Positions 12,087-46,520 are shown, counted from the stretch's first letter. The stretch is 64,000 nucleotides of DNA from an uncultured virus (IMG/VR IMGVR_UViG_3300025287_000001) (IMGVR_UViG_3300025287_000001); one strand, 5' to 3'. A program made the numbers and translations. Notes: generated from the sequence alone by a model not told the origin.

Positions 12087-12275
12087 CTAGATCATATCGC
12101 TGTAGAAAAAGTAAAGGCTCTTTGCGCCTGCATTCTGGAGGCGGGTCATTTGTCTCCAGATGAAAGAAGAATACAGGGAAGTGCTTGGCTTTGGTAAGAA
12201 ATACTTTGCCCTTGGAGAGAAGACATTTATGCCGCTTATGATCTCTAGATCGAATACTGTGTTGCTTCTTACCAT
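12087..12275 (-). CDS. Array microprotein, NTxFELE subfamily
   Basis: MVRSNTVFDLEI...YFFYSDMI. Confidence 0.7.
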   Translation of the reverse strand: MVRSNTVFDLEIISGINVFSPRAKYFLPKPSTSLYSSFIWRQMTRLQNAGAKSLYFFYSDMI

Positions 12276-12460
12276 TATATCACATCTTGGAAGAAGAAAG
12301 AGAAGAAGAAGTGACTTTCGCACATTGCTATCATGGTAGAGCGCACAGTACAGGCCCCTGAAATGGAAGCATAACCGTTGAAAAGCCCTACATGTCTTGC
12401 AAAAATGAGTTCCGAAGTTTGGATTATATCCAGCTCGAATATTGTGTTGCTTCTTACCAT
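12275..12460 (-). CDS. Array microprotein, NTxFELE subfamily
   Basis: MVRSNTIFELDI...FFFQDVI. Confidence 0.7.
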   Translation of the reverse strand: MVRSNTIFELDIIQTSELIFARHVGLFNGYASISGACTVRSTMIAMCESHFFFSFFFQDVI

Positions 12461-12645
12461 TATACAGTCTCTCGATAGAAGAAGAAGAGGGAGCAATAAT
12501 CATAGTCTATGTACTCTATAAAGTCTGGGGTCCTCCATCTGGAGTCTGTGTGTGCAGGTCCTTCGAAGAACTGCACAAACCTTATAAATGGTGTACTGTC
12601 ATTGACGATTACTTCCAGCTCGAATATTGTATTTGTCTTTACCAT
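12460..12645 (-). CDS. Array microprotein, NTxFELE subfamily
   Basis: MVKTNTIFELEV...FFFYRETV. Confidence 0.7.
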   Translation of the reverse strand: MVKTNTIFELEVIVNDSTPFIRFVQFFEGPAHTDSRWRTPDFIEYIDYDYCSLFFFYRETV

Positions 12646-12854
12646 TAGAGCACCTCAAAGTAGTACGAAATGAGAATCAGACCTCCTCCAGGCGTCAGGG
12701 CCTTTAGCGTTCTAAATCTTCTTGTCTCGAAGATATGATCTGCAAATCTGATATTAGTTTCCGTACAGTCTAGCAATATCTTCGAAACATCCATCCCTCT
12801 GTCTACGTTATAAGGGAAGATATTATGGAAGTATACGTTATTTCTGTGTATCAT
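12645..12854 (-). CDS. Array microprotein
   Basis: MIHRNN...SYYFEVL. Confidence 0.65.
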   Translation of the reverse strand: MIHRNNVYFHNIFPYNVDRGMDVSKILLDCTETNIRFADHIFETRRFRTLKALTPGGGLILISYYFEVL

Positions 12855-13102
12855 CAATGCCACCAATGGTAGTGTTGGATGAGGGTGATCATATCGAAGC
12901 CATCAGGCTTTATTATCATCTTTAATGTCTCCTTTCTGTTATGCCTGAACTCCTCGTAAAGCTTTCCTGGGCTATCGACATTACAGCAAGTTGATATGAG
13001 GCCTTTCATAACTCTAAAGGGCTTTACATAAGAATCCCTTCCGACTATAAAGTAACCTCTTGCGCCCGAGTTCGCGAATATGCCACCGTTAGAGCTTATC
13101 AT
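12854..13102 (-). CDS. Array microprotein, SNGG/WWH subfamily
   Basis: MISSNGG...QHYHWWH. Confidence 0.7.
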   Translation of the reverse strand: MISSNGGIFANSGARGYFIVGRDSYVKPFRVMKGLISTCCNVDSPGKLYEEFRHNRKETLKMIIKPDGFDMITLIQHYHWWH

Positions 13103-13302
13103 CAGAACAAATCCTGGTAAAAGAAGAAGAGAGCGAGAGTATTTTCAAGGCGGTTCTCTAGTAAAAAGTTCAAGCTTCTGATTGCATCAGCCTGCAATCT
13201 ACAGTCACCAGTACGAATCATGAAGTATTCGTGCCTTATGAAATGGGATGCTGCTTCACTTTTCAGCACTTCCAACTCGAACAATGTGTTTGTTTTTAAC
13301 AT
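13102..13302 (-). CDS. Array microprotein, NTxFELE subfamily
   Basis: MLKTNTLFELEV...FFFYQDLF. Confidence 0.7.
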   Translation of the reverse strand: MLKTNTLFELEVLKSEAASHFIRHEYFMIRTGDCRLQADAIRSLNFLLENRLENTLALFFFYQDLF

Positions 13303-13502
13303 CAGAATGAATCCCAATAGTAAAAGAAGAGCTGGAGGGCATTGTCGAGGTCGCCTTCTAGAAATAAGTCCAAGTTTGCAATTACACTAGAAACCAATCT
13401 ATAATCATCAGCATGCCTCATGAAACTTTGATGCCTTATGAATCGTAATGATGCCTGATTTTTCAGTATCTCTAATTCGAATACTGTATTTGTCTTTATC
13501 AT
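13302..13502 (-). CDS. Array microprotein, NTxFELE subfamily
   Basis: MIKTNTVFELEI...FFYYWDSF; close paralogue of neighbour. Confidence 0.7.
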   Translation of the reverse strand: MIKTNTVFELEILKNQASLRFIRHQSFMRHADDYRLVSSVIANLDLFLEGDLDNALQLFFYYWDSF

Positions 13503-13747
13503 TAATGCCACCAAAAGTAACGCTGTAGTATCGAGGTCAGGTCATAGCCCACCAAGACTGCTATGACCATCCTTCTCTCGGAGGAGCTGTCAAGAGGAGG
13601 TAGGTTAGATCGGCTCCTCCGATCATCCTTATATGCACAGGTGCATATAACAGATTCACGTCTTTCAGGTGGCACAGGGCGGGTAAACACATCCTCGAAC
13701 ATGTTAAGTGGGCTTATTAGATGCGAGCCACCATTATTGCTTATCAT
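13502..13747 (-). CDS. Array microprotein, SNGG/WWH subfamily
   Basis: MISNNGG...QRYFWWH. Confidence 0.7.
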   Translation of the reverse strand: MISNNGGSHLISPLNMFEDVFTRPVPPERRESVICTCAYKDDRRSRSNLPPLDSSSERRMVIAVLVGYDLTSILQRYFWWH

Positions 13748-13950
13748 TATAGCCACCAATAGTAGTATTGAAGGACGTGGTGAGCCTCTCCGTTAAGGGC
13801 AGAAGCGCGCACAATCCTTAAGGACTTTTTGGGATAATATGCGGTCTTGGTAATTTCTCCAAGCGTCTGGTATATGTTACGATATCCCAAGCTTTTCTGG
13901 AAAACGAGGCCTGTAAACTCGCAGACAAGAATATTGTTAAACGTATTCAT
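13747..13950 (-). CDS. Array microprotein
   Basis: MNTFNN...QYYYWWL. Confidence 0.7.
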   Translation of the reverse strand: MNTFNNILVCEFTGLVFQKSLGYRNIYQTLGEITKTAYYPKKSLRIVRASALNGEAHHVLQYYYWWL

Positions 13951-14156
13951 TATATCCACCAATGGTAGTAAGATATGATGTCTCTAGTATTCAAATCACT
14001 AATTCTAGAAAGCCTAACGTTTCTTCCGTGACTAAGCACCCCGCTGGTGTCCACTAACCCACTAAAGACTTCGGTGAAGAAGTTCCCGCCGTATTCAAAG
14101 AGGGGATTACTGTCCAAGGATAAGCGTGTTGATATATAAGTGTTCAGAGTATTCAT
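13950..14156 (-). CDS. Array microprotein
   Basis: MNTLNT...YYHWWI. Confidence 0.7.
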   Translation of the reverse strand: MNTLNTYISTRLSLDSNPLFEYGGNFFTEVFSGLVDTSGVLSHGRNVRLSRISDLNTRDIISYYHWWI

Positions 14157-14356
14157 TATAACCACCAGTAGTATTGGAGCATGTTAGCCATCGGTTGACT
14201 CATGAGATCTATCATCGTAAATGTTCCACTTTGGCGGGGAGTCTGGGAGGCCTTGGGCACGCGATCATTAGCCACGCAGATATAAACCTTCAAGAGCATG
14301 TTGTGCGAAGAAGAACAACCAATTCTATACGCAGAATGACTATTTGTTGTTATCAT
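14156..14356 (-). CDS. Array microprotein
   Basis: MITTNS...NMLQYYWWL. Confidence 0.7.
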   Translation of the reverse strand: MITTNSHSAYRIGCSSSHNMLLKVYICVANDRVPKASQTPRQSGTFTMIDLMSQPMANMLQYYWWL

Positions 14357-14556
14357 CGCAGCCACCAATGGTACTGGAACATGTTTGTTAAGTTATGCCC
14401 TATAAGACTTCTCATGGCGCGCCCTCTTCCCTGGTAGGTCCTTTGAGAGGTCTTGGGCTGGAAACTACCGAGGGCGCGGTTGGACATCATTAAGAACGTG
14501 TTGTGCGAGGAAGTCCAATCCAATATCCGCATGGAGTAACTGTTATTGTACATCAT
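14353..14556 (-). CDS. Array microprotein
   Basis: MMYNNS...NMFQYHWWLR; paralogue of neighbour (SSHN, PKxSQ). Confidence 0.7.
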   Translation of the reverse strand: MMYNNSYSMRILDWTSSHNTFLMMSNRALGSFQPKTSQRTYQGRGRAMRSLIGHNLTNMFQYHWWLR

Positions 14557-14650
14557 TTTTTATTCCTTATCTGAGGCCTTACATAGTTTTACCTAGCATA
14601 TAGGGAAACCCTTACTAAGTGCTTGAAATTATTGACCTTTATTTTTTGGC

Positions 14651-14842
14651 CTATTTTACGTATCTGATGATTGAAGGAGATGTGAAGTTGTCTCTGGTGT
14701 AAGAATAGAGGTAAAAAGGGTCGGATCTGAAGCCTCTGAGCTTATAATCACACAAGAATCGGTAACTTGTTGCCAAAACAATGCCCTTTATAGGAAATGA
14801 CTTCAGAGGGAAGAGGTTGTCATAAAGCTTGCAAATCACCAT
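14651..14842 (-). CDS. Small hypothetical protein within array
   Basis: 63 aa, AGGAG RBS. Confidence 0.5.
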   Translation of the reverse strand: MVICKLYDNLFPLKSFPIKGIVLATSYRFLCDYKLRGFRSDPFYLYSYTRDNFTSPSIIRYVK

Positions 14843-14931
14843 AATGCTTTCTCCTGTTGATTATAAGCGGTTAAGAGGGGGATATCCATAAATGCCTCCT
14901 TGCTCTATTTCCCTATACGCTAGGTAACAAT

Positions 14932-15135
14932 TCAAAGGGTAGAGCAAAGAACGAATCCTTGATTAAAGAACCTTGTCAGATAAAGGACTCTCCCTGGTAT
15001 GATTCTGGTTGAGAGGTGGCTTGTGTTCCGCTTCAGATAATAGTCCAGAGAATAGCATGTCTCCAGTAGAAGAACGGGTTCTCCCTGGAGCAGCCCATGG
15101 GATTTATAGAGTGCCGAACAATTCATTGTTATCAT
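14932..15135 (-). CDS. Array microprotein
   Basis: MITMNC start, ATGA overlap. Confidence 0.6.
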   Translation of the reverse strand: MITMNCSALYKSHGLLQGEPVLLLETCYSLDYYLKRNTSHLSTRIIPGRVLYLTRFFNQGFVLCSTL

Positions 15136-15341
15136 ACAACCTTCTTTATCACAAAGTGCCAATCGAAGTACAGGATATGATCATGGAGATTGCCATTACA
15201 GTTAAGCTCCTCAACCATCATCATTTGAATCCCTATAAGGTCTTTGTTCCCGTTCGAGTAGCAACTTTTGATGCAGGTCTTGATGTTTCTTTTTTCAGAA
15301 CCAATATAGTCAAAGACAAGATAATTCTTGAAGTCTATCAT
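15132..15341 (-). CDS. Array microprotein
   Basis: MIDFKN start, ATGA overlap. Confidence 0.6.
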   Translation of the reverse strand: MIDFKNYLVFDYIGSEKRNIKTCIKSCYSNGNKDLIGIQMMMVEELNCNGNLHDHILYFDWHFVIKKVV

Positions 15342-15544
15342 TGCCAATCTCCGCACCATCCCACGCTAAACATCTGTGAGTGGTAGTATGACAGCATCTC
15401 CCATAAAGCTATGCTGTCACGGGATGGTACGGGGATCATGCGCACCCTGGAGCTTCCTGACTTTGCATAGTGGCGAGGGGGATCGCAATCTATTGTTTGC
15501 TCTGGGATTATTATTAGTCCCATATAGGTGTTTATTGTATTCAT
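15338..15544 (-). CDS. Array microprotein
   Basis: MNTINT start. Confidence 0.6.
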   Translation of the reverse strand: MNTINTYMGLIIIPEQTIDCDPPRHYAKSGSSRVRMIPVPSRDSIALWEMLSYYHSQMFSVGWCGDWQ

Positions 15545-15548
15545 TAGC

Positions 15549-15782
15549 CTAAACCTTAACGACGTGGTACGCGATAAACGGCTTACTGAACATTATAGTA
15601 TCATAGAGAATGGGGCGAGTAAGGAAGTCCAAGTAGGCCTTCAGAGGGCTTGACACGCTTCTTCTGTCTGCCCCACCCGCTGCGTACTTGAGGTAAGCAG
15701 AAGGCACTACTTCAACTTTATAGCCTTTCGCAAGAGAAACATTACCATAATCCAAGATCAAAGATGTGTTAAAGTGTATCAT
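15549..15782 (-). CDS. Array microprotein
   Basis: MIHFNT start. Confidence 0.6.
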   Translation of the reverse strand: MIHFNTSLILDYGNVSLAKGYKVEVVPSAYLKYAAGGADRRSVSSPLKAYLDFLTRPILYDTIMFSKPFIAYHVVKV

Positions 15783-15973
15783 GGACCTACCTCATCGACG
15801 CCGAAAAAGCTTATATTAAAGAACCTTAACATGTCTCTCACGGAGTAATTCATAAGACCACAGAAAGGCGTTCTATGCACAACTTCAGTGCTCTCAGCAG
15901 CGTGGTAATAAGGGAAGTAGAACAAGGTGTATCCTGATATAGTATAAGAACTTACTGTGTTTAGTGTTATCAT
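15779..15973 (-). CDS. Array microprotein
   Basis: MITLNT...FPY...HRTP. Confidence 0.65.
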   Translation of the reverse strand: MITLNTVSSYTISGYTLFYFPYYHAAESTEVVHRTPFCGLMNYSVRDMLRFFNISFFGVDEVGP

Positions 15974-16167
15974 TGCTCTAACTCCACAATGGAGAATAGG
16001 TTCATACGGAAGTAAGCGAGAAGGCTAACAAGCCCTCCGGCACCTTGTGTATAAAGGAGAGGGCGGTGCCTCACCAAGTCTGGGCGGGGTTGGAACTGAT
16101 ACGGGAACTCAAGGCACAATCTGGCCGGCAATATGTGAAGAGCTGCTGTATTGTTGAGAGTCACCAT
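15970..16167 (-). CDS. Array microprotein
   Basis: MVTLNN...FPY...HRP; AGGAGG RBS. Confidence 0.65.
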   Translation of the reverse strand: MVTLNNTAALHILPARLCLEFPYQFQPRPDLVRHRPLLYTQGAGGLVSLLAYFRMNLFSIVELEQ

Positions 16168-16563
16168 ACGCCCTCCTAAGGGCTTCGAATTGTCTAGGTA
16201 GGCTACCCCCTTCGCCGGGGGCGTTCTGTTGATTCTGAGGCTTTCTAGGGGCCTTCTCGTTGATATTTGGGCGGGTCTGACCCCCCTCCAACAACCCCAA
16301 AAATAATCAACCTCGTTCACCGCCTTCCGGGGCTTATTGCACCACTTTTCAGCACTTTTCAACACTCGTCAGTGCTTATTGCACCACCTTCCGGGCTCCC
16401 TTGTAAGCTAGGCACCGGATCTGGCGGGTCAAGGGAAAGGGACAAAGAATATGAACGGACAAGGAGAAAAAAGAAACCCCGGATGGGATTGCTCATCTCT
16501 TCTTGTTGCTTATATATGATCTTCTTATTATTGGTTCTTATTATTGCTTCTCATAAAGAGAGC

Positions 16564-16779
16564 TTAATGCATAACAAGAATGGTATGAAGTTTCTTATCT
16601 GGGTACATGGTATATCCTATAGCTCTTGTTACACTTAATAATCCTTTGTATAGAGTTATAGAGTCTCTTTCCTTGTCTCCGTTTCCCAGTATCCATGTAT
16701 TATTATTTATTGTTGTCTGCGGTGGAAGAAGCCTTCTTGTTTCGTATTCGAGCAGCCATAGATTGTTCGTGATGATCAT
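16564..16779 (-). CDS. Array microprotein
   Basis: MIITNNLW start. Confidence 0.65.
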   Translation of the reverse strand: MIITNNLWLLEYETRRLLPPQTTINNNTWILGNGDKERDSITLYKGLLSVTRAIGYTMYPDKKLHTILVMH

Positions 16780-16958
16780 AGCACAAACTTGTTGGAGTAG
16801 AGGATAAGCTTCTTTGGGTAATACCCCATAAGCAAGTAGAGATGCTCAAAGGTGCATGCTCTTATAATGGATTTGGAGAATCCCGAGACTCCCAGGGCAA
16901 TATGAAGCACGGGGGATTCGACGTGGTTTCTTGTCCATATTGTATTTGCTCTTATCAT
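16776..16958 (-). CDS. Array microprotein, NTxW subfamily
   Basis: MIRANTIW. Confidence 0.7.
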   Translation of the reverse strand: MIRANTIWTRNHVESPVLHIALGVSGFSKSIIRACTFEHLYLLMGYYPKKLILYSNKFVL

Positions 16959-17162
16959 CTATCTGAAACTCCCTGCCAAGAGAGTTATGCGCCTTAGTTC
17001 GTAACTCTCTAAGTTGCTCAAAAGAAGGAAGAAGTTTAGTTCTTTACCTACGTTGCCCATATGACTGGACGTGGGATATGATAGCGGCAGCAATTGCCTG
17101 TGAGCATCTAATCTGTAAGCATCTGAATGGTCCATTGTCCATATCGTGTTTAGTATTATCAT
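16959..17162 (-). CDS. Array microprotein, NTxW subfamily
   Basis: MIILNTIW. Confidence 0.7.
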   Translation of the reverse strand: MIILNTIWTMDHSDAYRLDAHRQLLPLSYPTSSHMGNVGKELNFFLLLSNLESYELRRITLLAGSFR

Positions 17163-17342
17163 TTATCTGAACCCATTGAAGTATATGAGTAACCAGCGGG
17201 CTTCAACTCCAAACAAGATATACTGAATGTCAAAGGTTTCAAGTGCAATATTTCCCCTGGCGCGTTGCATGTTTTCACAATACCACGCCATGCCGTGTAC
17301 TCTTCCATACCTAATCGCCCATAATGTGTTTAGTGTATTCAT
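17163..17342 (-). CDS. Array microprotein, NTxW/RWLLIYF subfamily (59 aa)
   Basis: Hand translation MNTLNTLW...LETF...RWLLIYFNGFR. Confidence 0.7.
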   Translation of the reverse strand: MNTLNTLWAIRYGRVHGMAWYCENMQRARGNIALETFDIQYILFGVEARWLLIYFNGFR

Positions 17343-17521
17343 AATATATGATTGCTAGAGTAACACAGGAGTTGTTTTACGGGGTAGTTCGCAAGCATAT
17401 TAAGCCAGTAAAAGGTGCCTGTCTTTATACCGGGCCTAGCCAACTTCAAGCCCCTCTGGGCAGCGTGAAACGTGGAGATTTCGACTTGATCTCTTGACCA
17501 TAATGTGTTTGCTCTTATCAT
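17339..17521 (-). CDS. Array microprotein, NTxW subfamily
   Basis: MIRANTLW; paralogue of 16776-16958. Confidence 0.7.
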   Translation of the reverse strand: MIRANTLWSRDQVEISTFHAAQRGLKLARPGIKTGTFYWLNMLANYPVKQLLCYSSNHIL

Positions 17522-17695
17522 TTATCTGAATCTATTGAAGTATATGAGTAACCAGCGCAAACCACTATCTGTTAAAGCAAATTGAATTTTGAAGGTTTCG
17601 AGCTTCTCTTTGGAGTAGGACACGACTTCATAGTCTATCATTTGGAAGATGTCCAACTCCCTCCTTGCTGTCCAAGCTGTGTTTACTGTATTCAT
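17522..17695 (-). CDS. Array microprotein, NTxW/RWLLIYF subfamily (57 aa)
   Basis: Hand translation MNTVNTAW...LETF...RWLLIYFNRFR. Confidence 0.7.
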   Translation of the reverse strand: MNTVNTAWTARRELDIFQMIDYEVVSYSKEKLETFKIQFALTDSGLRWLLIYFNRFR

Positions 17696-17872
17696 CTATG
17701 AGTATGCCTCGAAAAACAATATGGTCCACTTTAGTTTATAACTCATCAAGAGAGATAAGTTACTTGAGGCGAGCGAGCGGCGCTTACGTGACGCCCTGTG
17801 ACTATCAGCATCTATTGCCTGTGAGAAAAGACATGAATGATCTTTCGCCCATATCGTATTATTTGTTATCAT
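17696..17872 (-). CDS. Array microprotein, NTxW subfamily (58 aa)
   Basis: Hand translation MITNNTIW...ILFFEAYS. Confidence 0.65.
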   Translation of the reverse strand: MITNNTIWAKDHSCLFSQAIDADSHRASRKRRSLASSNLSLLMSYKLKWTILFFEAYS

Positions 17873-18052
17873 TTATCTGAACCTATTGAAGTATATGAGT
17901 AACCAGCGGACATCTTTTCCTAGAAAGGTCTGAATAATTTCGAAGGTTTCAAGTTCAATAATTTCTTCGCTGTAATGTTGATATCTGTAATTCTCTATCA
18001 TGGAAGAGTGCACTTCTGGTTCTGTTGTCCAAAATATGTTTATTGTATTCAT
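17873..18052 (-). CDS. Array microprotein, NTxW/RWLLIYF subfamily (59 aa)
   Basis: Hand translation MNTINIFW...LETF...RWLLIYFNRFR. Confidence 0.7.
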   Translation of the reverse strand: MNTINIFWTTEPEVHSSMIENYRYQHYSEEIIELETFEIIQTFLGKDVRWLLIYFNRFR

Positions 18053-18231
18053 GTTACGATTCTATCGTAGTAGAGAACGTGCCATAGTACTTCAGGATTG
18101 ACCAAAGCGAAATACTCATTATAAGCTGTTGATTGCAAATTAGCCTTGGCGAATGGCCTGGATGAACTAATAGCTTTGCTTCCCACGACCGACCCCTGGT
18201 CTTTTGACCATATCGTGTTTAGTGTTATCAT
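18049..18231 (-). CDS. Array microprotein, NTxW subfamily
   Basis: MITLNTIW. Confidence 0.65.
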   Translation of the reverse strand: MITLNTIWSKDQGSVVGSKAISSSRPFAKANLQSTAYNEYFALVNPEVLWHVLYYDRIVT

Positions 18232-18256
18232 TTTTATTCCTTGTCTCGCGATGAAA

Positions 18257-18454
18257 CTAGATATACGGCTCGTATACAAAGCACCTTACTAACTGCCATT
18301 CCCCGTTTATTGCCATGAGGGTTTCGAGATTATAGTACGTTGTGTTCATAATCTCGAAGTCAGATAAAAGCAAGCCGTAGCAAGCCTCAAAGCGTATAGT
18401 GTTAAAGTTTTGCGAACAAGCCTGATCTGACCACAGAGTGTTTATTGTTATCAT
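18257..18454 (-). CDS. Array microprotein, NTxW subfamily
   Basis: MITINTLW. Confidence 0.65.
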   Translation of the reverse strand: MITINTLWSDQACSQNFNTIRFEACYGLLLSDFEIMNTTYYNLETLMAINGEWQLVRCFVYEPYI

Positions 18455-18634
18455 TTACGAATGCCTTTCGAGATAAATGAGTGTCCATCTTAAGAGAGGG
18501 CCACTGAGATGATTCATATAATAGAAAACTTTCCAATTTATAGAACCCTTTGAGTAAGGCTTATCGCGGCCCTTCATCACGTATGTAAAAGTGCGATTAT
18601 GACTCATTACCCACATTGTGTTTAGCGTGTTCAT
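18455..18634 (-). CDS. Array microprotein, NTxW subfamily (59 aa)
   Basis: Hand translation MNTLNTMW...LESF...RWTLIYL. Confidence 0.65.
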   Translation of the reverse strand: MNTLNTMWVMSHNRTFTYVMKGRDKPYSKGSINWKVFYYMNHLSGPLLRWTLIYLERHS

Positions 18635-18669
18635 TTATTTCTCTTTATCTACACTCATGAATAGGGTCG

Positions 18670-18879
18670 TCAATGCCACCAGTAGTAGTGCATGATCTGC
18701 ACCGAAAGCCCGTAACCAATCAGATCCCGAAGCGTACTACACACCTTTCTCTCTAGGCGACTGGGGGCTGTCTTAAACATACTATCGGGAAAGATTGCCC
18801 CGCGAAGCCCTACGAACCTCTCTTCTGCGTGTCGCGTGTTTATTATTACTGTGATTATCTCTGCGTTGCTGCTTATCAT
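18670..18879 (-). CDS. Array microprotein, WWH subfamily
   Basis: MISSNAE...LERK...IMHYYWWH. Confidence 0.7.
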   Translation of the reverse strand: MISSNAEIITVIINTRHAEERFVGLRGAIFPDSMFKTAPSRLERKVCSTLRDLIGYGLSVQIMHYYWWH

Positions 18880-19070
18880 ATATTCCTCGCATAAAAGAAT
18901 ACAATATCTACTGTTGCGCTAGAGAATTTGTGCATGTGCAACACTCTCAACAGATAAAATCTATCACCTCTAACGTCTTCCGTGTGGCCGATAACACACA
19001 AGCGATCATAAATCTTGTAAAAGGAATCCAAGTGAGTCCTAGCTGCCCATACTGTGTTCGATGTTATCAT
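18876..19070 (-). CDS. Array microprotein, NTxW subfamily
   Basis: MITSNTVW. Confidence 0.65.
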   Translation of the reverse strand: MITSNTVWAARTHLDSFYKIYDRLCVIGHTEDVRGDRFYLLRVLHMHKFSSATVDIVFFYARNI

Positions 19071-19107
19071 TTACTTCTCTTTGTCTGCATGAATAGAAGC
19101 GAAAGAC

Positions 19108-19323
19108 CTATCGCAATAAGTAAAGCATGATCCAGCAGATTCCATTATCTTCCGTATCGCCAAGATAAGCTTGTCCAGAAGGCAGCATCAAATTACAGAG
19201 GTTATACATAACGCTTCTCCTTCTTCCGCAATGACCAGCCCCAAAGGCAGCTTCTTTTAGTCTGTGGTAATAGAACCTTTCACTGCCTGATGCTAAGGTC
19301 CATATTGTATTCGTTGTATTCAT
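19108..19323 (-). CDS. Array microprotein, NTxW subfamily
   Basis: MNTTNTIW. Confidence 0.65.
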   Translation of the reverse strand: MNTTNTIWTLASGSERFYYHRLKEAAFGAGHCGRRRSVMYNLCNLMLPSGQAYLGDTEDNGICWIMLYLLR

Positions 19324-19333
19324 TGATTTCCTC

Positions 19334-19525
19334 TCAATGCCACCAATAATAAAACATAATATGGGCAGCAATACTACCTCCTGCTAGGCGATGCAGGAAT
19401 CCGTTAGTCTTCCTCTCCAGGCTGATAGGGGCTGAACTAAAGACATATCCCGGGAATGCTTTATAGATTATAGTTTCAGTAGAGAATTTTGAATTATGGA
19501 CTAACTCTGTGTTGCTGCTAATCAT
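19334..19525 (-). CDS. Array microprotein, WWH subfamily
   Basis: MISSNTE...LERK...IMFYYWWH. Confidence 0.7.
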   Translation of the reverse strand: MISSNTELVHNSKFSTETIIYKAFPGYVFSSAPISLERKTNGFLHRLAGGSIAAHIMFYYWWH

Positions 19526-19526
19526 A

Positions 19527-19718
19527 CTAACTCCACCAGTAGTAAAACATAATGCTTGAAGCGTAGTTCTTCCCAAAAAGAAACCTTAACCTCCTCAGGA
19601 CCGTTCTTTCTCTAGAAGGGCAAGCAGCCCTGGGTGCGCGCCCTGAGTAAATTTTGCGAATAACCCCAGGCTGCGTGAAGTTCGAAGATTGAATTATCCA
19701 TACGTTGCTGTTAATCAT
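19527..19718 (-). CDS. Array microprotein, WWH subfamily
   Basis: MINSNVW...IMFYYWWS. Confidence 0.7.
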   Translation of the reverse strand: MINSNVWIIQSSNFTQPGVIRKIYSGRAPRAACPSRERTVLRRLRFLFGKNYASSIMFYYWWS

Positions 19719-19909
19719 CAATGCCACCAGTAAAAGTGCGTAATGGTTCCGGCTAGCTGTAGGCCGGTGAGGTGAATCAACATATCGCAAGTATCCCTGC
19801 ACTCAACAACACTGCTCCTCACTAGCATGTGATCGGGCAAAACCTTAAGCACAATTTGCATTGACGAAAGCTTCCCCTCTTGAATTAACTCTATGTTGCT
19901 ATTAATCAT
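19718..19909 (-). CDS. Array microprotein, WWH subfamily
   Basis: MINSNIE...HFYWWH. Confidence 0.7.
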   Translation of the reverse strand: MINSNIELIQEGKLSSMQIVLKVLPDHMLVRSSVVECRDTCDMLIHLTGLQLAGTITHFYWWH

Positions 19910-20115
19910 ATGCCTTGAAGCCAATAAAAGAGAAATTGATTAGTTATTTTGCCACGCATTATAAACACGACCATTTCAAACTTTTCTGAAGAGAGCGACA
20001 GCAGCGATCTTTCATAGCAAGTACTTATGTCATGCCTTACTACATTTATATGGGCCACCCCATTCAGGGTATATGATTTGCTCAGGAACCCAAAGTTTAC
20101 GTTCGTTGTTATCAT
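19906..20115 (-). CDS. Array microprotein
   Basis: MITTNV...FYWLQGI. Confidence 0.65.
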   Translation of the reverse strand: MITTNVNFGFLSKSYTLNGVAHINVVRHDISTCYERSLLSLSSEKFEMVVFIMRGKITNQFLFYWLQGI

Positions 20116-20312
20116 TAATAGTCTCCAAGCCAGTAGATAGTAATTTGCCTTAAAGAGTAAGGCAGCAATTCTTCTATGACGATATTGACCTTAGGATTTC
20201 TCCATGCGAATATATTCCCATCAAAAGTACCAGTAAGTAGTTGTCGCCTTACCCAGACCATGCCCTTGAATCCGCTTACTAACTCTGAGCCTGTTGTGTT
20301 TAAAGATATCAA
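20115..20312 (-). CDS. Array microprotein
   Basis: MISLNT...IYWLGDY (TTG start). Confidence 0.6.
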   Translation of the reverse strand: MISLNTTGSELVSGFKGMVWVRRQLLTGTFDGNIFAWRNPKVNIVIEELLPYSLRQITIYWLGDY

Positions 20313-20321
20313 TGTCTTCCC

Positions 20322-20513
20322 TTATATGTTCTCTCTAAAGTAAATGATCTGATCGAACAGCCCAGAGGGCATTATACTTTCCAAATACCGAAACTTAAAG
20401 TCCAGTGCCGCATCCTCACAATTTAAGTGAAGCGAATACCTAGGTACTGCGTAATGAGGCTCGAAAGCACTATTAACGCACATTACGATTGCGTATGTGT
20501 TGGCTCTTGCCAT
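20322..20513 (-). CDS. Array microprotein
   Basis: MARANT...IIYFRENI. Confidence 0.6.
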   Translation of the reverse strand: MARANTYAIVMCVNSAFEPHYAVPRYSLHLNCEDAALDFKFRYLESIMPSGLFDQIIYFRENI

Positions 20514-20740
20514 TAGTGCCACCAATAGTAGTATTGAAGGATTTCGGCTAGTGTAAAGCCGCACAAAGTACTCATTAAGTGCTTTCTCTGACTGTGGGTG
20601 TCATAATTCCCTATCGTTTCGCAACAAGCAGTAGTGTTGAAGAAGGGATAGTTAAAAGGAAGGCTATTATTATCATAACTGATGAAAATAGGATTCAATA
20701 TCTTCGCCCCTAATACTATTCCGCCATTAGAGTTAATCAT
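20513..20740 (-). CDS. Array microprotein, SNGG/WWH subfamily
   Basis: MINSNGG...LQYYYWWH. Confidence 0.7.
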   Translation of the reverse strand: MINSNGGIVLGAKILNPIFISYDNNSLPFNYPFFNTTACCETIGNYDTHSQRKHLMSTLCGFTLAEILQYYYWWH

Positions 20741-20922
20741 CACACCCACCATCTATAGTATTGGAGCAATCCAAACAAGGCCCATGTCTCTAACTTCCCA
20801 AGAGTATCGTGTGAGTCTTTTTCATATTCTTCTACCGAAACTGCCAAGACACTTAGGGGAAGCTCCATGCCGTAAATGGAAAATCTTTTTAAAACTACAA
20901 GCGACACGTTTGAGTTAATCAC
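20740..20922 (-). CDS. Array microprotein
   Basis: MINSNV...LQYYRWWV (GTG start). Confidence 0.65.
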   Translation of the reverse strand: MINSNVSLVVLKRFSIYGMELPLSVLAVSVEEYEKDSHDTLGKLETWALFGLLQYYRWWV

Positions 20923-21116
20923 TATAACACCTCATACCAGTAAAAGAAGGCATCTGCCACCCCTATCATTATATTGTCTGCGAGGATGTAAAACCTATTT
21001 GTTGAGTATGACGCCCCTATCGCCATAACTCTGGTGTATGAATTTCTAACCCTAACATTCTCAAAAATATTAGGCTGGAGTATTTCTTCTTCGAAGAGTG
21101 TGTTCGACATTATCAT
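20922..21116 (-). CDS. Array microprotein, NTxFELE subfamily
   Basis: MIMSNTLFEEEI...FFYWYEVL. Confidence 0.65.
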   Translation of the reverse strand: MIMSNTLFEEEILQPNIFENVRVRNSYTRVMAIGASYSTNRFYILADNIMIGVADAFFYWYEVL

Positions 21117-21352
21117 TAGTGCCACCAGTAATAGTGCTGGAGTATTGTTGTCACTTTGCGTCCTTGAATATTGTTTAAGGTATCTTTTCTCGCGGAGCGT
21201 GTTGAGATACCTTTTCTCGTAGCAGCCCTGTGGAAAGGGGGGTTATTTACGATACCTGGGACCGCCAGGAGATCGGTCACGAATATGTACTTTTCACGCC
21301 ATGCGTGGCCATATACATGCGTGGTCAATATGCCGCCATTAGAACTAATCAT
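21116..21352 (-). CDS. Array microprotein, SNGG/WWH subfamily
   Basis: MISSNGG...LQHYYWWH. Confidence 0.7.
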   Translation of the reverse strand: MISSNGGILTTHVYGHAWREKYIFVTDLLAVPGIVNNPPFHRAATRKGISTRSARKDTLNNIQGRKVTTILQHYYWWH

Positions 21353-21369
21353 TTATTATCCTTTTCTCT

Positions 21370-21588
21370 TCAAATAAAGAAAGATATGTCGTAACGCAGC
21401 AACCATGCAAGGGCCTCTTCCTCCAGGGTCTCGGGGCATAACTCTGATCTGCAAAGCTCGTATGGTGCTGAGATGCGAATACCAAGGCGAAGGTGCCAGA
21501 TAGAATGGATAATTTGCTCACTCGAAAACTCAGAAACCCCGTGATCAGACCACTCTAGCGTATAAAACTCGATATTCGTAGTAATCAT
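21370..21588 (-). CDS. Array microprotein
   Basis: MITTNI start, GAGG RBS. Confidence 0.6.
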   Translation of the reverse strand: MITTNIEFYTLEWSDHGVSEFSSEQIIHSIWHLRLGIRISAPYELCRSELCPETLEEEALAWLLRYDISFFI

Positions 21589-21601
21589 TACCTGTCCTCT
21601 C

Positions 21602-21865
21602 TTAGTGCCACCAATGGTAAAACTGAATAACAAGGACACTTTCTTGCGACATTCCCCCCATCAGCCTTTCAGTTATATTGTACTTCTCTCTAACCATATA
21701 TCGGTACTCAAACCATCTAGGCTTCTCCACCCCTGTGATAAGCTCGGATTCCCATTTCTTATCTAGCACCCCTTTCTTAACGCATTCGAAGAGGGTTATC
21801 TTTATTTCACTACTGCATGTCTTCATGCCGTAAGACAGGAACGCTAAACTATTACTGGTGATCAT
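21602..21865 (-). CDS. Array microprotein, WWH subfamily
   Basis: MITSNS...QFYHWWH. Confidence 0.7.
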   Translation of the reverse strand: MITSNSLAFLSYGMKTCSSEIKITLFECVKKGVLDKKWESELITGVEKPRWFEYRYMVREKYNITERLMGGMSQESVLVIQFYHWWH

Positions 21866-21869
21866 TGTC

Positions 21870-22070
21870 TTACCCATAAAATTGAGAAGAATGGTAGATC
21901 AAAACATGACTGGAGAGGCCTCTGTGCAGCACCCTCAAGAAGAAAGAACAATCTCTCTTGGGCTCGTTGTCGTCTCGCATCAAGGCCCTGAGGTTGGATT
22001 CTGTATAGAGGCGAAGGCACCTATTAGGCTTTACGATGATGCTAGAAAAGTAGGTGTTGCAAGTAATCAT
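21870..22070 (-). CDS. Array microprotein
   Basis: MITCNT start, TGATG overlap. Confidence 0.65.
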   Translation of the reverse strand: MITCNTYFSSIIVKPNRCLRLYTESNLRALMRDDNEPKRDCSFFLRVLHRGLSSHVLIYHSSQFYG

Positions 22071-22258
22071 CAATGCCACCAATAGTAAAACTGGAGGATG
22101 TCGGCCATCTGGTAGGACATAACGATGCAGAGATCCTCTTTTCGTGTTCCGCGATGATAACCACTCCTGACTATTGTTTTTCGGAACAGTCTATCCATGC
22201 CTCTATAGACTTCGCCCTTGTCGAATACGATATCTATGCCACCATTAGAACTAATCAT
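22070..22258 (-). CDS. Array microprotein, SNGG/WWH subfamily
   Basis: MISSNGG...LQFYYWWH. Confidence 0.7.
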   Translation of the reverse strand: MISSNGGIDIVFDKGEVYRGMDRLFRKTIVRSGYHRGTRKEDLCIVMSYQMADILQFYYWWH

Positions 22259-22505
22259 CCCGAGGTCCTTCTGTCTTTGGGTTCGTAGAAGATATCAGAT
22301 AGGGCGGGGTTGATTCTTTTGGTGGACATAGCCACCTATAATAATCATCATCTCCATTGGAGAACATTTTGTCCCTCAAGTTGATGTAGTCCTCATCGGC
22401 ATCATCTCCTTCTGGTATTCTTTTATAATTCCCTGTCTTGATCCAAAAGTCTGCCTCCTTGTCGTTCATCATGACTGTAAGGCCGTTTACATCGTGACAC
22501 AGCAT
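22251..22505 (-). CDS. Hypothetical acidic protein with its own promoter
   Basis: 84 aa, AAGGA RBS, not an array-family member. Confidence 0.7.
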   Translation of the reverse strand: MLCHDVNGLTVMMNDKEADFWIKTGNYKRIPEGDDADEDYINLRDKMFSNGDDDYYRWLCPPKESTPPYLISSTNPKTEGPRDD

Positions 22506-22555
22506 TTGTTATCCTTTCTTGTGGTATTGCTAACGAGCGCACTGACTCAGGAATA

Positions 22556-22583
22556 AATCTAGGCGCGCACTGAGAAGAGTCAA
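22556..22583 (-). promoter_or_regulatory. Sigma70-like promoter (same consensus as early promoters)
   Basis: TTGACT-N16-TAGATT. Confidence 0.65.
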
Positions 22584-22587
22584 GGCC

Positions 22588-22845
22588 TCAGAATGGCCTC
22601 GGAGCTTGAAAGTTGTCAAAGGGGAGGATGCCGGGGCGTAGGAATATCCTGTACGGTGTCAGGCGCGCGAAATTGCGCCGTCTTGACATGCCCAAGCGAG
22701 ACAAGACGTATGTCATATTTCCACTGACGAACACATTCTTCCCCAGAGTTATAGTAACATAAGGAACAGTATCTCCAAACCCGGACGGCATAATCCTTCC
22801 CTCGTGTGGCTGGTAAACGTAGTATTTCTTTAAGACGACAATCAT
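22588..22845 (-). CDS. Small hypothetical protein within array
   Basis: MIVVLKK start, TAATG overlap. Confidence 0.55.
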   Translation of the reverse strand: MIVVLKKYYVYQPHEGRIMPSGFGDTVPYVTITLGKNVFVSGNMTYVLSRLGMSRRRNFARLTPYRIFLRPGILPFDNFQAPRPF

Positions 22846-23045
22846 TACTGACTCCATATCTTCGGTTGCATAGTGGAATACAAGGCAAGGTGAAATAAGT
22901 GATAGCGAAAGAGCCTCTTCTTGATATCCAGACTTGCCCTCCATAGCAGCCAAACCCTTTTATTGAAGGTGCTAATATGATATCTTTGCTCGTGACTCAA
23001 GGTGTGGTTAGAGAATTGAAATGGGTGTGTATTTGTTGTGTTCAT
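22845..23045 (-). CDS. Array microprotein
   Basis: MNTTNT...PKIWSQ. Confidence 0.6.
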   Translation of the reverse strand: MNTTNTHPFQFSNHTLSHEQRYHISTFNKRVWLLWRASLDIKKRLFRYHLFHLALYSTMQPKIWSQ

Positions 23046-24381: not shown

Positions 24382-24385
24382 CTTT

Positions 24386-24945: not shown

Positions 24946-24956
24946 ATATTATGTCC

Positions 24957-25375: not shown

Positions 25376-25376
25376 G

Positions 25377-41062: not shown

Positions 41063-42548
41063 TCAGGGCATCGCGCCCAAGATAGGGCGCAAAGAGGATA
41101 TATACCACAAGAAAGAGCCCGCCTCACGAGGGCTTAGTTCCCAAAGAGGCCTCAAGTCACGATCAGCGTATTGTATAGAGTAGTGATCGTAAAATTCTTG
41201 TATAAATATTCTGTTGTCACCGGGAGACTTATATGTCTCTCTCGCCACCCGTTCTTCCAGAGCGTATAAGCAATGTTCAAAGATGCTCGAATTTATTGTC
41301 ACCATAAAGCCCTGTCTCCACAAGCCATTAAGAATAAAAGATGGTTGCCACAGATATTTCCATAATATTGCGCGATTTGTTCCTCGACAGGCACCTTGGC
41401 AGGATATTGATACATGCTGACGCCAGTATGCTCTATTATGAGATCGTATCTCTTGTCTTTAGGGTCGCGCGCCACGGAGCTTCTGTAATGATTCTTAATT
41501 TTATATATTTCATCGTTTCCGCATACATTGTGATATAAAACAGAAAGAAAACTCACCATAGCATCATCTCGTATGTCAAGAGTCTGTAGTAAAAAGTTCC
41601 TTTAAAGATAAAACCGGAGAGGTCATTCTTGAACTCAGGACTACACTTGTTTCTTCGCCAACGCCATATTTCATCGTACCCGCCCGAAGCTATATCCCAT
41701 TCTCCCGTATACCTATTATCCTTATTATCTTCAGACAATTCTCTCGTAATGGTATTATGGAGTCTTTTATGAAGCCCTATCCTCGTTCTCACTATTCTTA
41801 TCACAGGAATCCTATGGGTATTTTTATAAGCTTACTCAGGTAAATTTTCTGCTACCCTCTCCAAAGAAAGCCTTGGTTGGCTGGCCCATCGCGCCTGCAT
41901 AGGTGAGGGGCGCACTCAAGCGAAAAGTTGTTAATTCTATTATCGTGATGATTGTAATTTATCTCAGCAGCCATTACGTCTGCAAGTCGCTGAAAAGGAA
42001 AACTCTCTAGAAACTGCATCCCTCTTAGATCAATCATTTTGCCTACTTTTTTAGCAGAAAAGGTTTTATGAAAAAGTACATTTGCTGAGAACAACCAAAA
42101 AGATGCACGTGCGAAGTTTTGATCCCTGCCGGGGCTGAGTTGCGCGAGTACATGTAAGAGATAGGATAATACCTACTATCATTCCTATCGTTGGCTATCG
42201 ACCATCGCACGACGTTAATCCAGTTGGTTTCTTTAAAAAAGGGCTGCACTGTGTGGATTATTATCGCTGCATTATACCCGATCATTATAGCAAATTGCAG
42301 AAGACAATATTTCGAATCGAAGCAGGAACTAGAGCCTCTCTGGTCATCCTCGGGTCAACCTGAAAAGAGTTCCGAACCCAGTAACCGAGGATAGCACTAA
42401 TCCTTATATCATCCAGATCCTTTGCTATCCTGAGTCGTATACTGTTCCAATGGCCTATCATGTTTTCACCATCCAGCTTCAGATTGTCCTCGCCTCGATC
42501 CGACAGGCAAGACCCCAGGACAAGTATACCAGTATCAGAGTATATCAT
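41063..42548 (-). other. Cluster of six small coupled ORFs resembling the array family (41063-41305, 41299-41559, 41553-41804, 41852-42037, 42043-42285, 42285-42548)
   Basis: MI/MV starts, 60-90 aa, overlapping or adjacent stop/start codons. Confidence 0.55.
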
Positions 42549-44716: not shown

Positions 44717-44931
44717 AACTGCTGCCTCATGTATTTCCTTAGTATATCCTCAGCCCTCTTCAACTCTTCTAGATTTTCTTCAATAAGCTTCATCTCCAGG
44801 CTTCTGTAGTATTCGGGACTGCCACGCTGAAGGAGCACGTTCCAATCGTACTTATATACGGATTTGGCGAAAGAATGGAGCTTTTTCACGGCAACTTTCA
44901 CCACCTCTCTCGCAGATTTTATCGTAAGCAT
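44713..44931 (-). CDS. Hypothetical protein
   Basis: ATGA overlap with downstream gene; start uncertain. Confidence 0.5.
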   Translation of the reverse strand: MLTIKSAREVVKVAVKKLHSFAKSVYKYDWNVLLQRGSPEYYRSLEMKLIEENLEELKRAEDILRKYMRQQL

Positions 44932-45158
44932 AGAGTCCCTAACTTGAAAGGGTGAAAAGTTTCCCAATATGTATCAAACATGCTGGGGAATGGTGCTTCT
45001 TGGACTTCACAGGTAATTCTCAGCAGGTTCCTGAGTGTAGAGTTTGGCAATCCTGTCTTGAAGTATACTTCTGAAGTTTTTGGCTTAAAAATAGTTTCTC
45101 TTTGTCTATTTTTAAGCCCGATTATGGTGTTAGAGAAGTAATTATTGTGAGATATCAT
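44919..45158 (-). CDS. Array-family microprotein
   Basis: MISHNN...FHPF. Confidence 0.6.
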   Translation of the reverse strand: MISHNNYFSNTIIGLKNRQRETIFKPKTSEVYFKTGLPNSTLRNLLRITCEVQEAPFPSMFDTYWETFHPFKLGTLCLR

Positions 45159-45358
45159 ATCAGTCCTCTGTACACGACCAAGGGATAATTGTATATCAAT
45201 AGCACGGAAGATCCTACCTCAAAAACATGACTAAAATTCTGATAACGAACGGGCCATCGAGAGGTTTGTTTGATATTCGTATCGAAAAACTTTCTCGTTT
45301 TAATATAGTCATACTGCAAGACAGAATTAAACAATGCATTGCTGTTTGTTGTTATCAA
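45155..45358 (-). CDS. Array-family microprotein
   Basis: MITTNS...YPL...RGLI. Confidence 0.6.
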   Translation of the reverse strand: MITTNSNALFNSVLQYDYIKTRKFFDTNIKQTSRWPVRYQNFSHVFEVGSSVLLIYNYPLVVYRGLI

Positions 45359-45361
45359 AAC

Positions 45362-45895
45362 TCAACACTCTGGCTTATAGAATAAAACATACTGCTTGTC
45401 ATCATACATGCTGGTCAATTCCCCAATCTCGATGGTGCCGCTCGGGCATCGCTTGGACATAAACTTTTGCAGGGCAACAAGCTTTGTTTTCTCGTGCTTA
45501 TTTCGGGGCACTTTAAGCAAGTTTATGTTTGTTTTTGCAGCCATCTTCAGGCGGCCAACCATAATATCAATCTCGTGGCTGATATGTTTAGGTTCGTAAG
45601 AAAGACAATTCCATGAATCACTCTTCGGAGACGCCACGGCTTTGCTGTGGTAATTGCTGTCAATTATCTCTTTATGAGAAAGCGCCTCCTCAAGGAGCCT
45701 TCCTGTCTTGGTGGCAATCTCACCCAAGACCGTAAAGAATCCCTCCAAGACAGGAACAAAATCCTCGCTTCGAGGAGCGATAACTTTGGTGCCATCTTTC
45801 GATAACTGGAGTCTGCTTAGGATGACACCGAAGTTATTAATTGCGCGGTTATAATCAGATTGGAGTTGCCCAAATTCTTTTCTCAGGTCGTGCAT
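45362..45895 (-). CDS. Hypothetical protein
   Basis: 177 aa, AAGGA RBS. Confidence 0.7.
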   Translation of the reverse strand: MHDLRKEFGQLQSDYNRAINNFGVILSRLQLSKDGTKVIAPRSEDFVPVLEGFFTVLGEIATKTGRLLEEALSHKEIIDSNYHSKAVASPKSDSWNCLSYEPKHISHEIDIMVGRLKMAAKTNINLLKVPRNKHEKTKLVALQKFMSKRCPSGTIEIGELTSMYDDKQYVLFYKPEC

Positions 45896-45913
45896 ATCTT
45901 TTCCTTTTGTGTT

Positions 45914-46114
45914 TTATCGACAGTACGGGTTGAAAGCGTCAAACATTAGTCCGTATAGATTCAAGGCATAATAAATATTATCCCTTTCTGGACTGGTATA
46001 GCAAGCGCGAGAACATACACTAAACCGGCTGCTGGCTTTGATAAGACTTTTATACCGAAATAACGAATCTCCCTCCAGAGCCCTGTTTGTGGTTCGAGAT
46101 CTGCATCCTATCAT
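45914..46114 (-). CDS. Array-family microprotein
   Basis: MIGC...FDAFNPY. Confidence 0.55.
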   Translation of the reverse strand: MIGCRSRTTNRALEGDSLFRYKSLIKASSRFSVCSRACYTSPERDNIYYALNLYGLMFDAFNPYCR

Positions 46115-46308
46115 TTTATGCCCCTCGCCACTCTTAACGGATAGTAAACATCTACGAACAAATTGTACATATTGATAGACAAGTCAGCATAGAAATTGTG
46201 CCTAGTAGGCTGGATGTGTTGAAATTCGGCTCCGAATAAATCTCGCCTTCCGTAGGAACCCATGCAAAAAACATCTGCGTTGACAACAAAGCTATCAAGT
46301 ATTATCAT
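46111..46308 (-). CDS. Array-family microprotein
   Basis: MIILDS...LFVDVYYPL...RGIK. Confidence 0.6.
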   Translation of the reverse strand: MIILDSFVVNADVFCMGSYGRRDLFGAEFQHIQPTRHNFYADLSINMYNLFVDVYYPLRVARGIK

Positions 46309-46520
46309 CTCAAGCCCCTATAGGTGTTTAAAGGGTGATAGATATCAAAAAATAAATCAGCAACTTTGTTACCATTGATACGCTCAATAATATTATACCG
46401 ATAACATCTTAACATCCTGCTGTCAATCAAGTATAGTCCAATATATTTCCTGCGCTCTTCTCCATCACCGATGTGCTTAAATAACTGACAATATAAGCTA
46501 GAGTTATTCATTGTTATCAT
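46305..46520 (-). CDS. Array-family microprotein
   Basis: MITMNN...LFFDIYHPL...RGLR. Confidence 0.6.
   Translation of the reverse strand: MITMNNSSLYCQLFKHIGDGEERRKYIGLYLIDSRMLRCYRYNIIERINGNKVADLFFDIYHPLNTYRGLR

Follow-up and report, generated by a model that had tools for sequence, protein, structure and literature searches.

What is the long run of very small open reading frames (ORFs) carried by this marine phage, and are its members genes at all? The DNA analysed here, called the window below, is a stretch of 64,000 nucleotides of the uncultured virus IMGVR_UViG_3300025287_000001. It is a portion of a large tailed-phage genome of about 185 kb, and all coordinates are those of the whole 64-kb window. 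Between 12087 and 46520 the minus strand carries about 85 small ORFs, most of them packed head to tail, which an initial annotation had described as a giant, translationally chained array of hypervariable microprotein paralogues. The analysis shows that these are very probably real, translated genes that arose by tandem duplication. A more tentative reading is that they constitute several tandemly amplified, anciently diverged families of small proteins (57-90 amino acids, aa) with coupled expression, forming a repertoire that acts on the host.

Layout and Junctions

The main array and the clusters found beyond it are the following:

12087..26004, minus strand: main array, a head-to-tail series of 61 ORFs of less than 100 aa with a few longer ones, most of them translationally coupled
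27997..29023, minus strand: outlying cluster of three small ORFs, two of which begin M-I-x-x-N-N; no Pfam match
30088..30835, minus strand: outlying cluster of three small ORFs (78-89 aa) with starts of the type M/L-I-x-x-x-D; no Pfam match
31662..33281, minus strand: NPYS-type subfamily of seven coupled ORFs (71-86 aa), which share the C-terminal pattern LW.LFS.....L.R.PYS (alignment A4, BLASTP)
41063..42548, minus strand: outlying cluster of six small ORFs (61-87 aa); no Pfam match
44919..45358, minus strand: outlying pair (79 and 67 aa) with N at residue 5 and RGL-type ends
45914..46520, minus strand: outlying cluster of three small ORFs (65-71 aa), two of which end (Y)(H/Y)PL...RG(I/L)(K/R)

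The region 12087-26004 is covered to 96.5% by the best non-overlapping chain of minus-strand ORFs (>=40 aa), while in 100 dinucleotide-preserving shuffles such a chain covers 32.6% (standard deviation 4.2, maximum 44.4), which places the real array at z ~15. The plus-strand chain covers 42%. The 61 ORFs shorter than 100 aa in the chain measure 44-91 aa, mostly 57-85, with a median of about 65. About 60 ORFs had been claimed to tile 12.1-26.4 kb; the number, the single strand and the dense tiling hold, but the family-like ORFs end at 26004. Beyond them, about 24 additional small ORFs are found in six clusters between 27997 and 46520, close to the 25 or so reported earlier, and the array in total spans about 19 kb, or about 10% of the genome. 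The 65 junctions between 12.0 and 26.4 kb comprise 17 four-base overlaps (ATGA), 20 one-base overlaps (TAATG or TGATG), seven directly adjacent pairs, three with a one-base gap, and 18 others. Most junctions (47 of 65) are thus overlapping, adjacent or one base apart, as had been noticed from the start.

Two of the longer ORFs within the array, 23233-23613 (126 aa) and 24386-24721 (111 aa), both on the minus strand, start with MIKV(I/L)K and have no Pfam or PHROG match. The 84-aa acidic ORF at 22251-22505 (minus) lacks the family start and end motifs and looks more conventional than its neighbours.

Expression Signals at the Starts and Ends

In each unit the start region is A-rich and the ATG either overlaps the stop codon of the gene before it or lies directly next to it, and the ribosome-binding site is contained within the last codons of that gene. 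The array would then be transcribed as long polycistronic messages, in which the units may be translated by termination-reinitiation coupling. The predicted pairing with the anti-Shine-Dalgarno sequence is on average -5.2 kcal/mol for the 61 array starts, -4.8 kcal/mol for 24 large genes and -2.9 kcal/mol for 305 random internal sites (array starts against internal sites, Mann-Whitney p = 5e-10); the string used is a generic consensus and may differ from that of the host. The large genes of the phage have purine-rich ribosome-binding sites.

Alignment of the array ORFs at their ATG gives the consensus ATGAT(A)A-----AA(C/T)A(C)A, and positions -11 to -9 are rich in G. Of the 61 ORFs, 51 have Asn at codon 5 (AAC 34, AAT 17), and at codon 2 there is Ile in 41 and Asn in nine. 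Synonymous codons are not used evenly in this region: ATA accounts for 27 of the 41 Ile codons at position 2, compared to 27% of the Ile codons in large genes, and at position 6, where ACA is the commonest codon, it makes up 20 of the 23 listed ACA and ACG codons, compared to 41% of the Thr codons in large genes. Much of the M-I start is accounted for by ATGAT(A)A, which contains the TGA of the four-base overlaps. When it comes to the proposed start motif M-(I/V/N)-x-x-N, it describes the main array well but not the outlying clusters, where most ORFs start M-I while Asn5 is found in only about eight of 24 (counted by eye).

At the other end, F, W and Y together make up 30% of the last ten residues compared to 12% of the cores, which agrees with the aromatic ends described earlier. 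The C-terminal motifs are subfamily-specific, namely (I/L)xQxYYWWH, RWLLIYFNRFR, LFFFYQDLF and L.R.PYS, and they are located in the last codons, where they coincide with the Shine-Dalgarno site of the next gene. The aromatic stretch is longer than a Shine-Dalgarno site requires. An extra in-frame stop codon follows 28 of the 61 array stops and five of 24 in the large genes; these tandem stops are a by-product of the ATGAT start, and only a modest one. To a large degree the constant ends are therefore expression signals. As the C-terminal motifs are subfamily-specific and overlap the Shine-Dalgarno sites, and as the M-I start is in part the stop/start overlap, a shared peptide address is not needed to explain the ends, and the earlier suggestion of peptides addressed by a common terminal signal is not supported.

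The start motif is nevertheless common to otherwise unrelated subfamilies, and this would be expected if the products were capsid cargo, i.e., small proteins packed and ejected with the DNA and using M-I-x-x-N-T as an address. The internal proteins of T4-type phages carry an N-terminal capsid-targeting sequence and are encoded by a variable locus, and the array resembles them in that small proteins with no other relationship share a short, constant N-terminal motif. In the FFFY subfamily, and only there, a hydrophobic-x-Glu pattern is found right after the start motif; this may resemble the T4 prohead-protease site. However, the motif comprises only 5-8 residues and is largely a nucleotide-level feature (ATGAT(A)A, ATA and ACA bias), and the Glu-type cleavage pattern is absent from most subfamilies. 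Furthermore, in a scan of 50 window proteins, which represent 64 of about 185 kb, PHROG profiles named neither a prohead protease nor any head gene, and about 85 cargo species, a copy number of a tenfold order above that of the T4-type proteins, would be unprecedented. Capsid cargo is accordingly considered very unlikely.

Short constant ends, variable middles and many precursors per locus are also features of the precursors of ribosomally made, modified or cyclised peptides, such as prochlorosins and cyanobactins, in which recognition ends flank a hypervariable core. Such a function is highly improbable here, as neither PHROGs (50 neighbours) nor Pfam (six large neighbours) revealed any modifying enzyme, peptidase-transporter or cyclase, the sole nearby peptidase-like gene being the vWA/zincin gene at 9633-11000 on the opposite strand. 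The cores are moreover 40-50 residues long and have no pattern of Cys, Ser or Thr, while the leaders of known precursors are much longer than the conserved parts of the array. We know of no phage context for such a set of precursors.

Subfamilies and Duplication

The small ORFs were clustered using BLASTP (E <=1e-3), which gave clusters of 12, 8, 5, 3, 3, 2, and 2 members with the others as singletons, and with links only within subfamilies. Alignments were made for 16 YYWWH-type (A1), 12 W8-type (A2), seven NPYS-type (A4) and seven FFFY-like (A5) members, and their mean column identities are 25-42%. The subfamilies of the main array are located as follows:

12087-12645 and 13102-13502, minus strand: FFFY(Q/R/S)D-type subfamily, five members with starts M-x-(K/R)-(T/S)-N-T-x-F-E-L-E
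12854..24168, minus strand: YYWWH-type subfamily, 16 scattered members (A1) with invariant M1, N5, and two Trp; mean column identity 25%
12854-13102, 13502-14556, 18670-18879, 19334-19909, and 20513-20922, minus strand: examples of the YYWWH type (A1)
21116-21352, 21602-21865, 22070-22258, and 23938-24168, minus strand: further examples of the YYWWH type (A1)
16776..19323, minus strand: W8 or RWLLIYF-type subfamily, 12 members of 57-71 aa (A2, BLASTP)

Of all paralogue pairs in the window, 13102-13302 and 13302-13502 are the closest, with 51.5% identity (E 6e-22). The FFFY-type members are interrupted by 12645-12854 and 12854-13102, which are of other types, and one YYWWH-type gene (18670-18879) is found inside the W8 block. 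In this block MNT-type and MI-type genes alternate, and the MNT genes are each other's best matches, which points to the duplication of two-gene units. The clusters and these alternating units bear out the proposed expansion by tandem duplication within subfamilies. Between subfamilies, profile-profile comparison using hhalign gave a probability of 17% over 21 columns for A1 against A2, 6% over the first 11 residues only for A2 against A5, and 0.3% for A1 against A4, so that for these four subfamilies no relation is found past the first 11 residues. The original proposal of one single family with constant ends and a variable core is therefore not supported.

Coding or Non-coding

The tiling favours translation of the ORFs, as do the ribosome-binding sites and a test of the reading frame. 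For the frame test, seven codons at the start and nine at the end were trimmed, and Smith-Waterman scores were compared among members of one subfamily. The score in the ORF frame was 24.1 for W8, compared to 18.1 and 17.7 in frames +1 and +2, while the corresponding values were 38 against 20 and 26 for FFFY and 30 against 22 and 22 for NPYS. For YYWWH the score was 21 against 18 and 19, with a between-family background of about 19. In protein-guided alignments the first, second and third codon positions have identities of 0.46, 0.55, and 0.35, a comparison that favours the first two positions by construction.

If instead the array were non-coding, its tandem units would be RNA genes, for example for small RNAs, or DNA sites like binding sites and antisense promoters, with frames that are open only incidentally. 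The conserved junction is indeed short and nucleotide-biased, promoter-like sequences are found on the plus strand at several W8 junctions, with 66 such sites over the region compared to 39.6 (standard deviation 6.5) in shuffles, and the plus strand of unit 13502-13747 has a folding energy of -74 kcal/mol. Against this stand the single open frame in each unit, far beyond the shuffles, the separate ribosome-binding site of each ATG, and the similarity that is best in the ORF frame. Nor is there any sign of RNA structure. Among the 61 units, 31 were folded, and their z-scores of the minimum free energy average -0.12 on the minus and -0.20 on the plus strand, i.e., approximately no excess folding, and the array units are no lower than 30 large-gene tiles used as control (-0.45 and -0.65). 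ARAGORN found no tRNA genes, and Rfam gave no match between 11 and 47 kb, either at the gathering score or at E up to 1. A non-coding array is by this largely refuted and is regarded as the least probable of the explanations considered.

A structured-RNA array had also been suspected from long hairpins seen by eye in unit 13502-13747; the z-scores close to 0 and the lack of tRNA and Rfam matches speak against it.

Taken together, the tiling, the coupling, the ribosome-binding sites, the frame-specific similarity and the lack of an RNA signal point to real, translationally coupled genes. The initial annotation had argued for selection on coding; that the ORFs behave as genes is supported by the tiling beyond shuffles, the ribosome-binding site of each unit and the similarity in the ORF frame.

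Orphan Status

None of the 66 array ORFs tested has a match in PHROGs v4 (E <=0.01), and in Pfam-A the same 66 gave one sub-threshold match only, to CHASE3 with 16.3 bits against a cut-off of 28. Pfam matched none of the 24 outlying ORFs, and NCBIfam none of the 16 YYWWH members. The products thus match no family characterised in these collections, and in the initial annotation, too, the family had not been recognised.

Subfamily profiles (A1, A3, A4), proposed earlier as a check, recovered only this phage. A full HMMER pass with the YYWWH profile (A1) over 1.84 billion representative proteins gave 17 matches, of which 15 are the phage's own members or near-identical variants and two are translations of unrelated tandem repeats. 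The variants differ by single residues or by in-frame deletions of one and nine codons; this is anecdotal, as the source consists of called genes. A word-indexed search of 5.8 billion proteins with the YYWWH and NPYS profiles and a 320-aa neighbour gave the same picture, with only this phage and junk repeats. Profile A3 had no match in IMG/VR or GTDB genomes, while in JGI metagenomes it was found in this phage only, as three copies on a contig of 630,638 bp and on an identical contig of 29.5 kb.

At the nucleotide level, megablast of 12000-26500 gave no match among 50,697 GenBank phage records. No close GenBank relatives were found by tblastn, the best identities being 29% for DnaE, 25% for the vWA protein and 35% for GroEL (Flavobacterium phages; range 22-35%), and neither the 320-aa neighbour nor the vWA protein led to related loci in IMG/VR. 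Two pattern searches in IMG/VR were discarded. The junction pattern gave 15 loci, all by chance, and the two-unit start pattern was too loose, giving at least 119 single chance matches in AT-rich contigs and multi-match loci that were low-complexity repeats.

Are the Products Protein-like?

While the expression signals are intact, several results weigh against the view that these genes encode families of conventional proteins acting on the host. The amino-acid composition of the cores has moved only 31% of the way from the stop-free random-codon expectation to the large proteins of the phage (correlation of the composition shifts 0.68), and the codon-position bias of the array is weaker than that of the large genes. 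The best local helical hydrophobic moment of 59 cores is at the residue-shuffled level (z = -0.3), compared to z +6.0 for 60 segments of 55 aa from large proteins and z +1.2 for 60 random stop-free ORFs. From shallow paralogue alignments, AlphaFold2 predicted only two C-terminal helices for YYWWH (predicted local distance difference test, pLDDT, 51; predicted template modelling score, pTM, 0.29) and three helices for W8 (pLDDT 65, pTM 0.32), and the ESM Atlas model of one FFFY member has a pLDDT of 0.49 with look-alikes at noise level (<=0.76). In nucleotide-only alignments the codon-position effect is weak (0.62, 0.66, 0.58); these alignments are over-gapped, with 39 of 180 indels being multiples of three, and are not informative. 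Finally, no orthologues were found outside this phage, so purifying selection is not measurable. The periodicity test and the low-confidence predicted folds would argue against conventional compact domains. None of the array members has a transmembrane-like segment, and their net charges range from -8 to +9.

These results bring in the main rival explanation, namely that the ORFs are translated but that their residues matter little. The frames would then be kept open because a premature stop uncouples the chain and silences the downstream genes by polarity, and the products would be disposable and unfolded. They might be decoys that occupy the quality-control proteases of the host through their hydrophobic or aromatic tails, or else proto-genes drifting between occasional recruitments. 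Aromatic or hydrophobic C-termini can serve as protease degrons, and both the C-terminal aromatic enrichment and the tight coupling fit this explanation, as do the random-like cores (in periodicity, composition and AlphaFold2 and ESM confidence) and the fact that most YYWWH cores are not alignable above background. On the other hand, the frame-specific conservation in three subfamilies and the position-specific hydrophobic columns in the W8 and NPYS alignments indicate some selection at the protein level. Dispensable units should also be lost by deletion, but all samples examined have the same array. Disposable products are thus regarded as unlikely.

A library of about 85 chained, near-random micro-proteins, in which frames and expression signals are under selection while folds are not, is distinctly unlikely. 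Such a near-random pool with aromatic tails could saturate or mislead host quality control or defence and at the same time be a nursery for new phage genes. What makes the array notable is that all expression signals are intact while the cores do not pass simple tests for protein-like sequence. If the products are unfolded, a virus can hold tens of genes open for reasons other than folds, which bears on the origin of new genes and on the weight that should be given to an ORF with a ribosome-binding site when a conventional protein is predicted from it.

A Possible Role and Comparison with Known Systems

In the tentative reading of the array as amplified families acting on the host, the products might be early or middle intracellular factors, forming a repertoire of small binders or inhibitors directed against host proteins or defence systems. 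Successive duplications could have given rise to this repertoire, in the manner of the genomic accordions and multigene families known from large DNA viruses. Specificity would reside in the variable core, while the conserved ends would mainly be expression signals together with a short hydrophobic or aromatic tail. A binder or host-takeover role as such is conceivable, though doubtful. If it is true, the array represents a large untapped set of micro-proteins that target the host or its defences.

Dense operons of small orphan genes with their own ribosome-binding sites are found beside the replication genes in the early regions of T4, T5 and the Bacillus phage SPO1 (gp37-60). The array is similar to these host-takeover modules in all these respects, including the adjoining replication genes. 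However, the genes of the known modules are mostly not paralogues, while here most units belong to repeat families and share start and end motifs. The multigene families (MGF) of African swine fever virus (ASFV) and poxvirus gene amplification display lineage-specific tandem amplification followed by divergence, and are thought to be involved in host range and counter-defence. The array may be compared to these in outline, as a case of tandem amplification and later divergence, but it concerns another domain of hosts, far smaller units and a translationally coupled operon, and there is no sequence relation.

Closer parallels are found among large phages. Hua et al. (2017, PMC5646251) mention arrays of more than 30 similar genes for phages G and 121Q, and Iyer et al. 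(2021, PMC7824862) an expansion to about 35 zinc-ribbon copies for phage G. Published accounts of small-paralogue arrays in large phages are barely to be found, these two papers giving one sentence each in the passages concerned. As far as these brief statements go, the likeness lies in the head-to-tail duplication of small genes to tens of copies on one strand, as part of a large phage genome. The array studied here is of this type, with tens of consecutive, recognisably paralogous small genes on the same strand (61 ORFs, clusters of 12, 8, and 5). In G and 121Q the copies are, by the same accounts, very similar or have a recognisable zinc-ribbon fold, whereas here they are at most 51% identical, fall into several subfamilies with no detectable mutual relation and no PHROG or Pfam match, and amount to about 85 units in about 185 kb. 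No sequence relation to the G or 121Q families was found by PHROG or by megablast against the 50,697 phage records. The array is an extreme case of the small-gene arrays known from the brief reports on these two phages.

Transcription Layout

Two features on the minus strand are relevant to how the array is transcribed:

26866..26898, minus strand: strong intrinsic-terminator-like hairpin of 14 pairs, eight of them G-C, followed by a T run
16168..16563, minus strand: interruption of the array (a gap of about 400 nt) that lacks family ORFs and contains a weaker terminator-like hairpin at 16490-16475 and a G+C-rich hairpin at about 16206-16221

The strong hairpin (26898-26866) is placed between the gene encoding the 320-aa protein and the small ORFs leading into the array. 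The gap probably divides the array into two transcription units, and based on the strong hairpin and on the hairpin and repeats of the gap, the array is probably organised as two or more long operons. The gap may be a regulatory region or contain a small RNA; Rfam gave no match to it. It also contains a duplicated 12-mer, GGTGCAATAAGC, which is flanked by CCGGAAGG.

At several W8-type junctions between 16931 and 18454, the reverse complement of the start codons (ATGATA...TGG(T/A)CAA) reads on the plus strand as a sigma-70-like sequence, TTGACC/TTGTCC-16-TATCAT, and two of these junctions also have the TG of an extended -10 element. These promoter-like sequences are probably a by-product.

Genome Setting, Distribution and Variation

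PHROG profiles searched with the 50 window proteins identified a DnaE-type polymerase (57752-61507) and a GroEL chaperonin (49119-50723), both on the minus strand, as well as a dUTPase, a flavin-dependent thymidylate synthase (ThyX), guanylate and thymidylate kinases, and an exonuclease. The array is found on the strand of the genes for replication and nucleotide metabolism (DnaE, dUTPase, ThyX, the kinases) and of GroEL, and this was counted in favour of an array of coupled families acting on the host. The phage GroEL matches phrog_5725 with E 1e-115, and PHROGs named no co-chaperonin among the same 50 proteins. A tie between this chaperonin and the many odd small proteins is speculation.

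The phage is widespread in marine samples. The stretch was found wholly or partly in 17 marine-metagenome runs from 14 studies, two of which runs may be where this DNA comes from. Ten of the runs contain at least half of its sampled words, and its presence was confirmed by aligned contigs for four runs from four studies. No RNA runs are listed among those containing the stretch. Over 9601-29600 the contigs of the four runs are at least 99% identical to the window, from which they differ at three single bases, with neither indels nor joints. Four JGI loci match the window exactly. Three differences in 20 kb give no power for the ratio of non-synonymous to synonymous polymorphism (pN/pS). The term hypervariable, used in the initial annotation, is thus justified between paralogues but not between samples.

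On the JGI contig of 630,638 bp the same 20 kb is present three times, the copies being spaced 185,127 and 185,083 bp apart. This contig is thus not a megaphage but a concatemer in which the genome of about 185 kb is repeated 3.4-fold. The two spacings differ by 44 bp. The marine megaphage of PMC9723777 is, as far as its description there goes, a different phage of 656 kb with no bearing on the array.

The plus strand next to the array encodes a MoxR-type AAA+ ATPase (8443-9636) and a zincin-like/vWA protein (9633-11000). The two genes overlap by 4 nt, and the pair (8443-11000, plus) converges on the end of the array. The label HNH endonuclease of phrog_1314, given to the vWA family, looks like an annotation error, judging by the GenBank names of the matches. 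Directly downstream of the last array ORF, at 12036-12073 and before the gene for a 166-aa protein (11469-11969), there is a 15-nt tandem repeat (ATAAAATAAAACAGG, 2.5 copies). Tandem repeats of 27-30 nt, in up to 3.6 copies, are also found at 55732-56011 (minus) within a 205-aa ORF (55603-56220), where they imply a repetitive peptide segment.

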